Made by a program: the position numbers and the translations under genes. The notes beneath the pieces are model-generated. The model was given only the letters and a program-made list of their open reading frames with translations. It searched no databases and was not told the origin of the DNA. From the sequence record MZ311862.1: 39,586 nucleotides of DNA; one strand, written 5' to 3'. This DNA comes from Escherichia phage vB_EcoP_LNA3. Below are positions 13,683 to 29,645 of the stretch, one piece after another (within the stretch, counting starts at the first letter, position 1; the number at the start of each line of letters is the position of its first letter).

Positions 13683-13726
13683 AGACTCAAGGTCATTACT
13701 ATATGTAGTGGCCTTTATGGTTAACA
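13683..13726 (+). ncRNA. conserved hairpin element, candidate RNase III site (T7 R18.5 position)
   Basis: TAGACTCAAGGTCAT-loop-GTGGCCTTTATGGTTAAC; the AAGGTCAT/GTGGCCTT stem recurs at 22245 and 29603 with different loops. Confidence 0.45.
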
Positions 13727-13778
13727 CTAACTAGTGGAGGCGACTCTGCGTGAAATCTGATAAACCGGGAGGGCAACT

Positions 13779-14228
13779 ATGCTCGAATTTTTAAAGAGAG
13801 CGGCTCCGTGGTTACTTGCAGCAGTGATGTTTGCTGGTGGCTACCACACCGCTAACAATAAGTGGGAGGCTAAGGTCAATGCAGAATACACCTCGAATCT
13901 TAAGGCATCGGAAGATACAAGGCTTGCTGTCCAAGCTGAAGTCAACAAAGTGTCAAAACGGTTTCAGGACGAAATGTCCTCGCTGGAAGGCAGCACTGAT
14001 AGGATTATTGCTGACCTTCAGTCTGACAATAAGCGGCTGCGCATCCGAGTCAAACCAACGAGTGGAACCACGCAAAGTGACGGTCGATGCGTCATTGATG
14101 GTTACGCCGAACTTGACGAACGAGATGCTAAACGTCTTATCGCCATCGGAGTGAAAGGAGACAAGTGGATTAAGGCCCTTCAGGACACTGTGAGAGCCTT
14201 GCAGCAAGATAAGGAGGTGACGCATTGA
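13779..14228 (+). CDS. i-spanin (Rz-like, gp18.5)
   Basis: 149 aa with N-terminal membrane anchor ([12 protein letters not shown]), after gp18 as in T7. Confidence 0.8.
13879..14154 (+). CDS. o-spanin (Rz1-like lipoprotein, gp18.7), embedded in +1 frame within 18.5
   Basis: Embedded ORF with signal peptide and lipobox ([16 protein letters not shown]), similar to T7 gp18.7; GGGAGG 9 nt upstream of the chosen ATG. Confidence 0.6.
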   Translation: MQNTPRILRHRKIQGLLSKLKSTKCQNGFRTKCPRWKAALIGLLLTFSLTISGCASESNQRVEPRKVTVDASLMVTPNLTNEMLNVLSPSE

Positions 14229-15988
14229 GTAAAGATTTAGTGGCGCGTCAGGCGCTAATGACTGCCCGTATGAAGGCAGACTTCGTGTTCTTCCTGTTCG
14301 TCCTGTGGAAAGCTCTGTCACTACCAGTCCCGACTCGCTGTCAGATTGACATGGCGAAGAAACTATCGGCTGGGGACAACAGGCGTTTCATCCTACAGGC
14401 GTTCCGTGGTATCGGGAAGTCATTCATTACGTGCGCATTCGTGGTATGGAAACTGTGGAACAACCCAGACTTGAAGTTCATGATTGTGTCGGCCTCAAAG
14501 GAACGAGCCGATGCAAACTCCATCTTCATCAAGCGAATCATCGACCTCATGCCTCAGCTTCGGGAACTCAAACCTAAGCAGGGGCAGCGAGATGCGGTTA
14601 TCAGCTTCGACGTTGGACCAGCCAAGCCAGACCACTCACCTTCGGTTAAGTCAGTTGGTATCACTGGTCAGTTGACTGGTAGTCGTGCTGACATCCTGAT
14701 TGCCGATGACGTGGAGGTTCCGAACAACTCAGCGACTCAGGCTGCCCGAGACCGTCTGTCAGAGCTTGTGAAAGAGTTCGACGCTATCCTGAAGCCGGGA
14801 GGTACAATCATCTATCTGGGTACTCCTCAGAACGAGATGACCTTGTATCGTGAGCTGGAAGGCCGTGGGTACACCACTACTATCTGGCCTGCTCGTTATC
14901 CACGCGACAGGAAGGACTGGCAGTCTTACGGCGACCGTCTGGCTCCAATGCTTCAGGCAGAGCTTGAAGAGGACCCTGAGTCATTCTACTGGCGTCCGAC
15001 TGATGAAGTACGCTTCGATGATACGGACCTTAAGGAACGTGAGCTGTCATATGGTAAGGCTGGCTTCGCTCTACAGTTCATGCTTAACCCGAACCTGAGT
15101 GATGCCGAGAAGTACCCACTGAAGCTCCGTGACCTTATCGTAGCGGACTTGGACCCAGCGTCCAGCCCAATGGTCTACCAATGGTTACCGAACCCTCAGA
15201 ACAAGCGTGAGGACGTTCCTAACGTTGGACTCATGGGTGACTCGTACCACACGTATCAGACTGTAGGTTCTGCCTTCAGCTCATACACCCAGAAGATTCT
15301 GGTCATTGACCCTAGTGGTCGTGGTAAGGATGAAACTGGCTATGCGGTACTGTACCAGCTTAATGGCTACATCTTCGCTATGGAAGTTGGTGGTATGCGT
15401 GGTGGTTATGAAGACTCTACGCTTGAAGCACTGGCTAAGATTGGTCGTAAGTGGAAGGTCAACGAATACGTCATTGAGGGTAACTTCGGTGATGGTATGT
15501 ACCTTGAGCTATTCAAGCCTGTAGCGGCCCGTATCCATCCTGCGGCTGTAACTGAAGTGAAGAGTAAGGGTCAGAAAGAACTCCGCATCTGTGACGTTCT
15601 GGAGCCTATCATGGGGTCTCACCGACTTATCGTTAACGCTGCTGCTATCGTTCAAGACTACCAGTCAGCCTCTGATAAGGATGGTGTTCGTAACCCTATC
15701 TACTCTCTCTTCTACCAGATGACACGTATATCTCGTGAACGTGGAGCCTTGGCACACGATGACCGACTTGATGCTCTGGCTATCGGTGTACAGTTCTTCG
15801 TGGAGTCTATGGCTAAGGATGCCAACAAGGGCGAACGTGAAGTCACTGAGGAGTGGCTGGAGGAACAGATGGAGAACCCACGGAAAGGCTTCGAGTCCAT
15901 CCACACTGAGTTCTGGGACAATGGGGTCCGGGTAACTCATAATACGGACGACGAGCTGGGACTAGGGTCCTACGTTACGTTCCACTAG
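14225..15988 (+). CDS. terminase large subunit (gp19)
   Basis: 587 aa closely matching T7 gp19 ([29 protein letters not shown]...). Apparent TTG start 7 nt after AAGGAGG; an ATG at 14258 is the alternative. Confidence 0.9.
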
Positions 15989-16084
15989 CTGAATGAATAA
16001 CTATAGGCGAAAACTGAATTAATAAGCAGTTAGTAACCTATAGTTACTACCAGTCTAACCTACTGTTTTACAAGGAGTTTGGAC

Positions 16085-16103
16085 TTAACTATCACTATAG
16101 GGA
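16085..16103 (+). promoter_or_regulatory. phage RNA polymerase promoter (phiOR position)
   Basis: TTAACTATCACTATAGGGA downstream of gene 19, before the right-end region. Confidence 0.75.
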
Positions 16104-16279
16104 AGACCCCCGGTTACTTATAGTATTACTGTAGTGAATATACATATGCAGACTTTATGCAAGACCTTAGGAGGCAGACTCCGAGTTCTTACCTAAGGCT
16201 TGCACCGATGGAAGGAGGGTGATATTAATCATCACACCCTCATAACTTAAGTAGACCCAAGAGACAGGAGGTATGTAGC

Positions 16280-27492: not shown

Positions 27493-27672
27493 ATGGTTAC
27501 AGTTATTCTAGTTCTAACGCTTATCAGTGGTAGTGGGCAAACTATCAGCCAAGTACCTATAACAGCACCAACATTACAGGACGCATTCACAATATGTGAC
27601 CAGTCCGGCTCAAAGTGGGCCGACAAGTTTGGCGATGTCTCAAACGTTGCAGCAGGGTATGAGTGTATTTAA
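27493..27672 (+). CDS. small putative secreted or membrane protein (hypothetical)
   Basis: 59 aa (MVTVILVLTLISGSGQ...) with AAGGAG 6 nt upstream; bracketed by 12-bp direct repeats TAAGGAGTGACC at 27480 and 27670; below the ORF-track cutoff. Confidence 0.45.
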   Translation: MVTVILVLTLISGSGQTISQVPITAPTLQDAFTICDQSGSKWADKFGDVSNVAAGYECI

Positions 27673-27682
27673 GGAGTGACCA

Positions 27683-29383
27683 ATGTCATACGATGACCAA
27701 GACGACGAGAGTGTCTTTCTGTATCACACCCAGTGTCCAGACTGTGGGTCCTCGGATGCCAATGGTGTTTACTCAGATGGACACATGTACTGCTTCGCCT
27801 GTGACCCTTCAGTCGCATGGAAGAAAGGAGACATGGAGTTGACCGAGGGATACACACCCTCAGGAGGTAGAAAGCAAGTGAGCAATCTGTTAACGTTCGG
27901 TGAGAACGCTGGACGATATGTCCCACTACCAGCCCGTAGTCTCAGCATGGAGATATGCAAGAAGTACAGCTACTGGGTGGGTAACATGGGTGGCAAGATG
28001 GTTCAGGTCGCTGATTATTACGACAGGTCCGGGACCAAGGTAGGGCAGAAAGTCCGAGACGCTGAGAAGAACTTCACGGCTATAGGCAGCGTCAAGTCTG
28101 ACATGCTGTTCGGCTCTCAGCTCTGGAACGGTGGCAAGAAGATAGTCATCACCGAGGGAGAGATAGACGCTCTGTCTGTGGCTCAGGTGCAGGACGGGAA
28201 GTATCCTGTGGTCTCGCTTCCGTTAGGCTCCAAGTCTGCGAAGAAAGCGATGGCTGCGAACCTTGAGTATCTCGACCAGTTCGAAGAGATAATCTTGATG
28301 TTCGACATGGATGAACCGGGTCGTCAGGCAATTGAGGATGCAGCTCCCGTCTTACCAGCAGGTAGGGTCAAGGTAGCGTTCATCAACGGGTACAAAGACG
28401 CCAACGCTGCACTTCAGGCCAAGGACTTCAAGGCCATCACCGATGCAATCTGGAACGCTAAACCTTTCGTCCCGGCTGGCGTGGTATCAGCGGCAAGTCT
28501 GAAGGACCGCACACGAGAGGCAATGCTTAAGGCAGAGACTGAAGGCCTCATGTTCTCGTCATGCACAACACTCAACGCGATGACACTAGGTGCGCGAGCT
28601 GGTGAGCTTGTCATGGTGACTTCGGGGTCAGGCATGGGTAAGTCTACCTTCGTCCGTCAGCTCCTCTTAGAGTGGGGCAGAGGCGGTAAGCGTGTGGGCA
28701 TGGCTATGCTTGAAGAGGCTGTAGAGGAAACAGTTCAGGACCTTATGGGTCTGGACAATAACGTCCGTCTACGCCAGAGCAAGGAACTGAAGCAAGCCAT
28801 CTTAGAGGATGGACGGTTCGACGAATGGTATGACAAGCTGTTCGGAGACGATAAGTTCCACCTGTACGATTCATTCGCAGAGTCAGAGGAAGACACCTTG
28901 TTCGCTAAGTTATCCTACATGGTGGACGGTCTTGACTGTGACGTCATACTGCTGGACCACATCTCAATCGTTGTGTCTGGCATGGAAGATAACTCAGATG
29001 AACGTAAGACCATTGACCGCATCATGACTCGTCTCAAGAAGTTTGCGAAGACGAAGGGCGTGGTTGTCGTTGTCATATGTCACCTGAAGAACCCAGAGAA
29101 AGGTAAATCGCATGAAGAAGGACGACCTGTTTCAATCACTGACCTACGTGGTTCTGGTGCTCTACGCCAACTATCTGATACTATCATCGCACTTGAACGT
29201 AACCAGCAAGGTGATACCCCTAACGTTGTTCAGCTTCGTCTACTCAAGTGTCGCTTTACAGGTGATACTGGAGTGGCTGGACACCTTGAATACAACAAAA
29301 CGACAGGGTGGCTTGAACCGATTAGCTTCACTGGCAGCAGCGGAGAAGAGGATAGCGGCTCGTGGGAAAACAACGACTTCTAA
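27683..29383 (+). CDS. DNA primase/helicase (gp4)
   Basis: 566 aa (same as T7 gp4A) with zinc-ribbon CPDCGSSD...CFAC, helicase P-loop SGSGMGKST and C-terminal ...NDF. Confidence 0.95.
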
Positions 29384-29434
29384 ATGTCAATGCCCTGAGT
29401 GCGATTGGAAGTCACCATACGGAGGACACCATTA

Positions 29435-29599
29435 GTGTTTAAGAAACTTAAAGCTCGATACCATCGGTTCATGTACAAATGGTGGAGCGATGAAGCAACC
29501 TGCCTGTCGAACATTCTGGGAGACCAGCGGTTCAACTCTGCGGCATGGAAGAAAGCCAACCGGAAGTTCATGTATCACTTCTTGCGTACAGACTTCTAG
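29435..29599 (+). CDS. hypothetical small protein (gene 4.3/4.5 position)
   Basis: 54 aa from GTG 29435, 8 nt after GGAGGA; the track's 29399 start is also non-ATG with no Shine-Dalgarno. Confidence 0.4.
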   Translation: MFKKLKARYHRFMYKWWSDEATCLSNILGDQRFNSAAWKKANRKFMYHFLRTDF

Positions 29600-29602
29600 G
29601 TC

Positions 29603-29645
29603 TAGACTCAAGGTCATTCATAGCGAGTGGCCTTTATGATTAGAC
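29603..29645 (+). ncRNA. conserved hairpin element, candidate RNase III site (T7 R4.7 position)
   Basis: TAGACTCAAGGTCAT-TCATAGCGA-GTGGCCTTTATGATTAGAC; third copy of the stem. Confidence 0.45.

Follow-up and report, generated by a model that had tools for sequence, protein, structure and literature searches.

Escherichia phage vB_EcoP_LNA3 (sequence record MZ311862.1) carries three closely similar hairpin elements, which lie between genes 18 and 18.5, after gene 1 and before gene 5. We analysed the whole stretch of 39,586 nucleotides (nt), called the window here. The three elements are very probably processing signals for host ribonuclease III (RNase III) in polycistronic mRNAs, as are at least three diverged early-region copies, and the three late copies are the orthologues of the T7 sites R18.5, R1.1 and R4.7. 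The identification as RNase III sites is based on sequence homology, fold, synteny, strand specificity and covariation; that the elements are cleaved in this phage, and at which exact positions, we infer from T7 biochemistry and from the alignment.

Occurrence and fold of the three hairpins

The pattern TAGACTCAAGGTCAT-N(7-13)-GTGGCCTTYATGRTTA matched the window exactly three times, always on the + strand (13682-13723, 22245-22286 and 29603-29642), and none of 100 dinucleotide-preserving shuffles contained a match. The initial annotation of this DNA, which had reported three conserved copies, was thus borne out, and its coordinates needed only trivial shifts: the first start had been placed at 13683 instead of 13682, and the ends ran 2-3 nt beyond the shared motif. 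Both the sequence and the folds also agreed with its description of the arms, as AAGGUCAU and GUGGCCUU form 8 base pairs (bp), of which the fifth and eighth are U.G wobbles in every copy. The segments between the arms, previously described as a variable loop of 9-11 nt, are 11, 11 and 9 nt long and differ in sequence among the copies; however, RNA folding indicated that the segment ends are complementary in each copy (UAC/GUA, GAC/GUC and UC/GA), which lengthens the upper stem to 10-11 bp and leaves a true loop of 3-5 nt. For the gene 1.1 copy, the minimum-energy fold has an upper stem of up to 12 bp.

A conserved asymmetric internal loop, in which ACUC faces Y-A-U-G-R, separates the upper stem from a lower stem of 7-10 bp, whose sequence differs among the three copies yet stays complementary: GUGUUAG / UUAACAC in the gene 18.5 copy, UAGG.UUAG / UUAA.CCUA in the gene 1.1 copy, and GGUCUAG / UUAGACU in the gene 5 copy. 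The R18.5-type hairpin occupies 13677-13728 on the + strand, with the upper stem at 13689-13699/13705-13715, the loop at 13700-13704 and a predicted cut at U13718/G13719. The R1.1-type hairpin (22239-22292, + strand) has its upper stem-loop at 22252-22278 and a predicted cut at U22281/G22282, and the R4.7-type hairpin (29599-29646, + strand) has the upper stem AAGGUCAUUC/GAGUGGCCUU at 29610-29634 and a predicted cut at U29637/G29638. The first and third hairpins start at the stop codon of the upstream gene.

On the + strand, the copies at 13677, 22239 and 29599 folded at -23.4, -20.2 and -20.8 kcal/mol (z -4.5, -3.5 and -2.9), and the complementary-strand folds were much weaker, at -14.3, -17.6 and -12.9 kcal/mol (z -1.2 to -2.3). 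A weaker minus-strand fold is what the G.U pairs predict, so the structure belongs to the + sense RNA, and this weakness points to a function at the RNA level. The minimum-energy fold of the gene 5 copy also pairs CUUC at 29593-29596 with GGAG at 29651-29654 of the gene 5 Shine-Dalgarno sequence, which lengthens the lower stem; this additional pairing comprises only 4 bp and is missing in the centroid structure. Following this model, cleavage at the gene 5 copy might free the gene 5 ribosome-binding site.

As genes 18 and 4.x each have a stable stem-loop at their 3' end, the hairpins could also act by themselves, stabilising or terminating transcripts as a 3' stability element, a terminator or a pause site for host or phage RNA polymerase, with no endonuclease involved. 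Such a role would agree with T7, in which processing yields the protective 3' hairpin as its functional product. Nevertheless, we regard it as scarcely credible, because it leaves the conserved internal loop and the lower stem without a role. No U-run follows any of the three elements, whose stems continue into YAUGRUUA, and a terminator scan of positions 13400-30000 skipped all three, whereas it flagged the expected early terminator at 23782-23809; an intrinsic (rho-independent) terminator was excluded on these grounds. Additionally, the orthologous T7 sites are both read through and cleaved, according to bioRxiv 10.1101/106799, which cites Dunn and Studier (1983).

Comparison with T7 and other known sites

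Four T7 sites and the three window sites folded alike, with two stems and an internal loop between them (z -2.9 to -5.1); the folding check proposed with the initial annotation therefore returned T7-like two-stem hairpins for all three elements. T7 R0.5 (TAGACTCAAGGTCGC-..-GTGGCCTTTATGATTA) and T7 R1.1 (ACTCAAGGTCATTC-GCAA-GAGTGGCCTTTATGATTG) are among seven T7 sites that align base for base with the window elements, and the 10-bp upper stem AAGGUCAUUC/GAGUGGCCUU of the gene 5 copy is that of T7 R1.1. The string ACUCAAGGUC..GUGGCCUUYAUGAUU is common to R1.1, R4.7, R18.5 and R0.5 of T7 and to the window sites, as is the arrangement of a lower stem, an internal loop and an upper stem of 10-11 bp. 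Eleven columns are invariant among the three window sites and seven T7 sites. We built a covariance model from the alignment of these ten sites, with a consensus structure of 18 pairs, and scanned the window with filters off. The window sites scored 65.3 (R18.5-type), 59.9 (R1.1-type) and 61.2 bits (R4.7-type), that is, in the same range of 60-65 bits as the T7 sites.

For the cut positions, we used ten T7 RNase III cleavage coordinates in NC_001604, which we take to be those of Dunn and Studier (1983). With these coordinates, the cuts at R0.3, R0.5, R1.1, R4.7 and R18.5 share one motif position, ..CCUUYAU^GAU.. (TAT^GAT), and those at R1, R1.3 and R6.5 fall at the corresponding position in diverged versions of the motif. 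The coordinates are supported by this agreement on a single motif position.

The T7 and window sites also correspond in their placement. In both phages, they lie on the transcribed strand, after gene 18, after gene 1 behind a phage promoter, and after the gene 4 cluster, and the promoter-then-hairpin order at the R1.1-type site is that of phi1.1A/R1.1. The predicted cut lies 60 nt 5' of the gene 18.5 ATG in both phages (in T7, the cut is placed at 36856 and the ATG is at 36917). The base-for-base alignment, the shared fold and the synteny in the 80 relatives described below all upheld the correspondence with R18.5, R1.1 and R4.7 that had been proposed from the letters of the sequence.

The two phages differ in several respects. 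Loop and lower-stem sequences are not the same, the lower stem having changed with compensation, and the three late copies of the window are more alike than the T7 copies are. One promoter precedes the R1.1-type site here, in contrast to phi1.1A and phi1.1B in T7, and a gene 1.05-like open reading frame (ORF) stands between gene 1 and this site. Since the phage has no gene 4.7, its R4.7-type site lies directly 5' of gene 5, and because genes 1.2 and 1.3 abut, it has no R1.3 site. The gp0.7 kinase of T7 is also missing in this phage.

R1.1 RNA is the standard E. coli RNase III substrate, used by the Nicholson laboratory. The enzyme cuts only one phosphodiester in it (PMC4858673). The proximal and distal boxes of R1.1 both act as positive recognition determinants, the optimal distal box being UA/UG; good reactivity needs a helix of at least 11 bp from the cut site to the loop, and the loop sequence is unimportant (PMC1540722). 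Using the definitions of the proximal, middle and distal boxes from PMC1540722 and PMC4858673, we compared the sequences of the elements with that of R1.1 and found that the distal-box A-U and U.G pairs are kept in all three copies. These properties explain the pattern noted in the initial annotation: the invariant stem with its two wobbles comprises the boxes that RNase III reads, and the loop is free to drift.

In the close relative K1F (DQ111067), the three elements occur at about 5573, 12860 and 36453 and are identical to those of the window, bar one loop base in the gene 5 copy. EcoDS1 (EU734172), like K1F a Kayfunavirus, gave covariance-model matches at 35933, 6045 and 13038, as well as matches in its early region. 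The GenBank records of K1F and EcoDS1 have promoters, terminators and genes annotated and no RNase III sites, and none of the Rfam 15 covariance models matched the window, either at the gathering score or at E values up to 1. The cellular E. coli substrates (rRNA precursor stems and rnc/pnp leaders) and the lambda sites resemble the window elements in having a helix of about two turns as the primary recognition feature, in following the proximal and distal box rules, and in having internal loops or bulges that restrict cleavage (PMC1540722, PMC3867540). However, cellular and lambda sites have no sequence homology to the window elements, and in many cellular sites both strands are cleaved, whereas T7-type sites receive a single cut, which leaves a protective 3' hairpin.

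Conservation and covariation in relatives

A search of viral contigs with the RNA polymerase returned 80 relative loci, whose polymerases are 58-98% identical to that of the window. In these loci, the covariance model gave 318 matches (E < 0.01), about four per relative, and 300 of the 300 matches listed lie on the + strand, as do all 285 matches of an independent nhmmer search. A site was present within 1.2 kb after gene 1 in 75 of 77 assessable loci, within 700 nt before gene 5 in 68 of 69, and within 300 nt before gene 18.5 in 33 of 37.

For covariation, we aligned all 127 matches from 24 diverse sources, which comprise 120 distinct sequences. Standard pairs filled 93.3% of the cells, compared with 76% after shuffling, a control that overstates significance because the alignment was fitted to the model and mixes paralogues, and with 26-49% when the 3' partners were slid by 1-3 columns. 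The slid-partner control is the sounder one, and it unambiguously supports maintained pairing. Changes on both sides were found in 16 of the 18 pairs (9/9 in the lower stem and 7/9 in the upper stem), and the top-150 alignment gave a similar result. The initial annotation had called for covariation analysis across related phages, and this analysis supports pairing; the arms do not vary without compensation, since the upper helix is paired in 99.3% of the cells over the 120 distinct sequences. Its own argument, that an invariant stem with a variable loop indicates structural selection, was weak, as invariant pairs are uninformative on this point. The evidence for structure comes instead from covariation, seen in the lower stem and in the topmost part of the upper stem, and from strand specificity.

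These comparisons also bear on whether the elements act primarily as DNA, as hairpins or cruciforms in replication initiation, in recombination or in sensing by SMC-type defence, with RNase III cutting as a secondary event. T7 R1.1 lies inside the primary replication origin. The palindrome of a T7 RNase III site and similar ones of a T7-like vibriophage trigger Lamassu DdmABC-dependent death in either orientation, and three stem-disrupting substitutions lower this effect 25-fold (PMC11707656). An identical upper stem-loop also occurs at non-orthologous positions in distant genera, which could reflect DNA exchange. However, on the opposite strand A.C mismatches take the place of the conserved G.U wobbles, and the minus-strand folds are 3-9 kcal/mol worse, with non-significant z values. 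The transcribed strand holds every match listed in the 80 relatives, the covariation includes G-C to G-U changes, which are typical of RNA, and the sites stand at mRNA boundaries throughout the genome, beyond the origin. Moreover, being sensed by a defence system is a liability and not a selected function. The G.U wobbles, the poorer folds of the minus strand and a strand bias without exception led us to reject a primary function as DNA palindrome or cruciform, and a mainly DNA-level role appears very improbable.

The core ACUC, AAGGUC, GGCCUU and AUGA is 93-100% conserved among the best 109 distinct sequences, a figure that partly reflects the picking of high scorers. In these 109 best distinct matches, from phages down to 58% RNA-polymerase identity, the core is conserved beyond the needs of pairing. 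The near-invariant ACUCAAGGUC...GGCCUUYAUGA might accordingly bind some other factor, such as a phage or host RNA-binding protein that controls translation of the downstream gene, with RNase III as one of two readers or a minor one; the pairing of CUUC with the gene 5 Shine-Dalgarno GGAG in the minimum-energy fold would be in keeping with this. We give this explanation almost no credence. RNase III binding, the choice of cut site and single-strand cleavage are known to depend on the proximal, middle and distal boxes and the internal loop (PMC1540722, PMC4858673, PMC3867540); the conserved positions match these features, so no extra reader is required. In addition, the top-150 alignment is biased to model-like sequences, and weaker sites do vary in the core with compensation, the first upper-stem pair among the relatives being A-U in 99, C-G in 16 and G-C in 4.

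The upper stem-loop at 13686-13720 of the window, ACTCAAGGTCATTACTATATGTAGTGGCCTTTATG, recurs, loop included, at the R4.7 position of a group of relatives (loci L046-L083 and L041). The RNA polymerases of these phages are only 58-62% identical to that of the window, and their lower stems differ and covary. The shared ACTCAAGGTCATTACTATATGTAGTGGCCTTTATG suggests either that the loop is constrained or that sites have been copied from one position or phage to another. Because the stem-loop of R18.5 is identical at the R4.7 site of such distant phages while the lower stems differ, intergenic blocks of 35-60 nt might be copied between sites or phages by gene conversion or recombination and serve as linkers for module exchange, being also the palindromes that Lamassu senses. 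We consider this rather unlikely. Similarity between the window and K1F breaks off at points other than the three sites, and the comparison therefore gives no direct support here for the sites as recombination junctions.

Early copies and candidate sites

The covariance model also found three more diverged matches on the + strand in the early region, which brings the sites in the window to six; the three late copies originally reported are real, but the family is larger. T7 R6.5, absent from the training set, served as a positive control and was recovered by the model, which missed the atypical T7 sites R3.8 and R13. The first early copy, of the R0.3/R1 type (17386-17451, + strand, ACAUGG..CCCUGACUGAU), is the weakest of the six (20.6 bits, E 0.011; -22.5 kcal/mol, z -3.8) and lies upstream of the first early ORF. 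The second, of the R1 type (17708-17768, + strand, ACAGGUCG..CGGCCUGACUGAU; 42.7 bits, E 1.6e-8; -23.8 kcal/mol, z -4.3), lies between early ORFs of 84 and 167 amino acids (aa). The third (18438-18497, + strand, GAGGUCAC..GUGGCCUCAAAGAUUA; 28.7 bits, E 8e-5; -19.3 kcal/mol, z -3.2) stands about 18 nt 5' of the ATG at 18515.

All three early copies are intergenic and have the architecture of the late copies. Like T7 R1, they show a compensated change at the first upper-stem pair, with C-G or G-C replacing A-U. The copies at 17386-17451 and 17708-17768 have almost the same 3' half (CCUGACUGAUAGUCACUAAC) and constitute an R1-like subfamily apart from the three late copies. With this subfamily among the early sites, transcripts of the host and the phage polymerase would therefore carry different site subtypes.

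Three further candidates were found by eye on the + strand. Citing Dunn and Studier (1983), bioRxiv 10.1101/106799 lists R3.8, R4.7, R6.5 and R18.5 as strong T7 sites and R13 as a weak one. The candidate R3.8-type site (27436-27475) has an 11-bp hairpin at 27436-27462 after the promoter at 27422, followed by UUUGUUCGCAUU, and shares the block TCCCTTTGTTCGCATT with T7 R3.8; it gave no match to the covariance model, which also misses T7 R3.8. The candidate R13-type site (2532-2581) is a perfect 12-bp inverted repeat, AAGGGCCTATAG/CTATAGGCCCTT, around the phi13 promoter (z -3.7), and the candidate R6.5-type site (33868-33975) has arms of 24 nt, 83% complementary, around the phi6.5 promoter. In T7 R13 and R6.5, the hairpin likewise encloses a promoter (phi6.5 lies in the R6.5 loop). 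The hairpins at 2532-2581 and 33868-33975 could form in read-through transcripts only, not in those from the enclosed promoter.

An R1-type site after the promoter at 19150 (ACUCAAGGUCU...AGACCAAAG) was tried and is not claimed, as its fold was no better than shuffles (z -0.86) and the model gave no match. The leader after the phi10 promoter (37745-37790) contains the 5' half of the site motif (AGACAGACTCAAGGTTTCCC) inside a GGGAUACC...GGUUUCCC hairpin, which resembles the stem-loop of the T7 gene 10 leader and had no covariance-model match.

Genome and gene context

The window of 39.6 kb is the complete, circularly permuted genome of a phage of the T7 supergroup, genus Kayfunavirus (K1F-like), and its + strand carries all the long ORFs. 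The whole window is 94.6% identical to coliphage K1F (DQ111067) over 38 kb, its position 1 falling at K1F 22773, and the 1064-aa tail-spike ORF of K1F is also present. The gene 1 region is 93-94% identical to those of Escherichia phages P762, YZ1 and ZG49. Window positions 16676-16852 align to both ends of the linear K1F genome (1-177 and 39528-39704) and are therefore one copy of a terminal repeat of about 177 bp at a concatemer junction; a 178-bp terminal repeat is annotated in the EcoDS1 record.

PHROG searches agreed with the flanking genes named in the initial annotation (18 and 18.5, after 1, before 5). The first element is bordered by the terminase small subunit gp18 (13414-13677) and the Rz-like gp18.5 (13779-14228). 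Upstream of the second element, the order is RNA polymerase gp1 (19240-21921), an ORF of 71 aa (21934-22149) and a phage promoter, and the hairpin ends 25 nt 5' of gene 1.1 (ATG 22317). The third element follows the primase/helicase gp4 and a 66-aa ORF ending at 29599, and lies 18 nt 5' of the DNA polymerase gp5 (ATG 29664).

The promoter directly 5' of the R1.1-type site (TAAACTATCACTATAGGA, 22226-22243, + strand) belongs to a motif with 11 matches in the window, compared with 0.05 expected. By the T7 promoter convention, its transcripts would start at about G22241, within the 5' arm of the lower stem, so that read-through and promoter-initiated transcripts would both carry the R1.1-type site.

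The gp0.7 protein kinase of T7 phosphorylates and stimulates RNase III. No homologue was found in the early region of the window (16900-19240; best tblastn E 1.2), where the largest ORF has 167 aa. A gp0.7 homologue is present in 60 of the 80 relatives; this phage has the full RNase III site set without the kinase.

Proposed processing of the transcripts

The processing proposed here follows T7. The + strand RNA of each element would form an irregular hairpin of about two helical turns, and RNase III would cut it once, within the 3' strand of the internal loop (..CCUUYAU^GRUUA), which places the cuts after U13718, U22281 and U29637. The upstream mRNA would then end in an intact upper stem-loop and be shielded from 3' exonucleases, and the mRNAs of genes 18.5, 1.1 and 5 would receive defined 5' ends 60, 35 and 26 nt before their start codons. 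According to PMC1540722 and PMC3867540, internal loops restrict RNase III to one phosphodiester, and the resulting 3' hairpins shield the RNA from 3'-5' exonucleases.

Several points weigh against identifying the elements as RNase III sites. The T7 cleavage coordinates used here are those attributed to Dunn and Studier (1983), and no RNase III sites are annotated in the T7 RefSeq and V01146 tables that we obtained. Paralogues stand alongside orthologues in the covariation alignments, which were also fitted to the model, and the shuffle control is inflated by related sequences. The core is conserved in sequence more strongly than base pairing alone would need. In the searchable literature, we found no RNase III cleavage data for this phage or any Kayfunavirus, nor a Kayfunavirus paper in which RNase III is mentioned. 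Finally, as the phage has no gp0.7 kinase homologue, the efficiency of processing might differ from that in T7.

Significance

The elements represent the classic, textbook RNase III processing system of T7 in a K1F-like phage; the system is already known, and its discovery value is small. What is added here is the full anatomy of the hairpins, three early sites, three candidate atypical sites and a covariance model. The model would annotate such sites across T7-like genomes; Rfam has no model of the family, and the K1F and EcoDS1 records leave the sites unannotated. Known sites help to set mRNA boundaries for the engineering of K1F-type therapeutic phages, and they flag palindromes that are reported to trigger Lamassu/DdmABC defence (PMC11707656).

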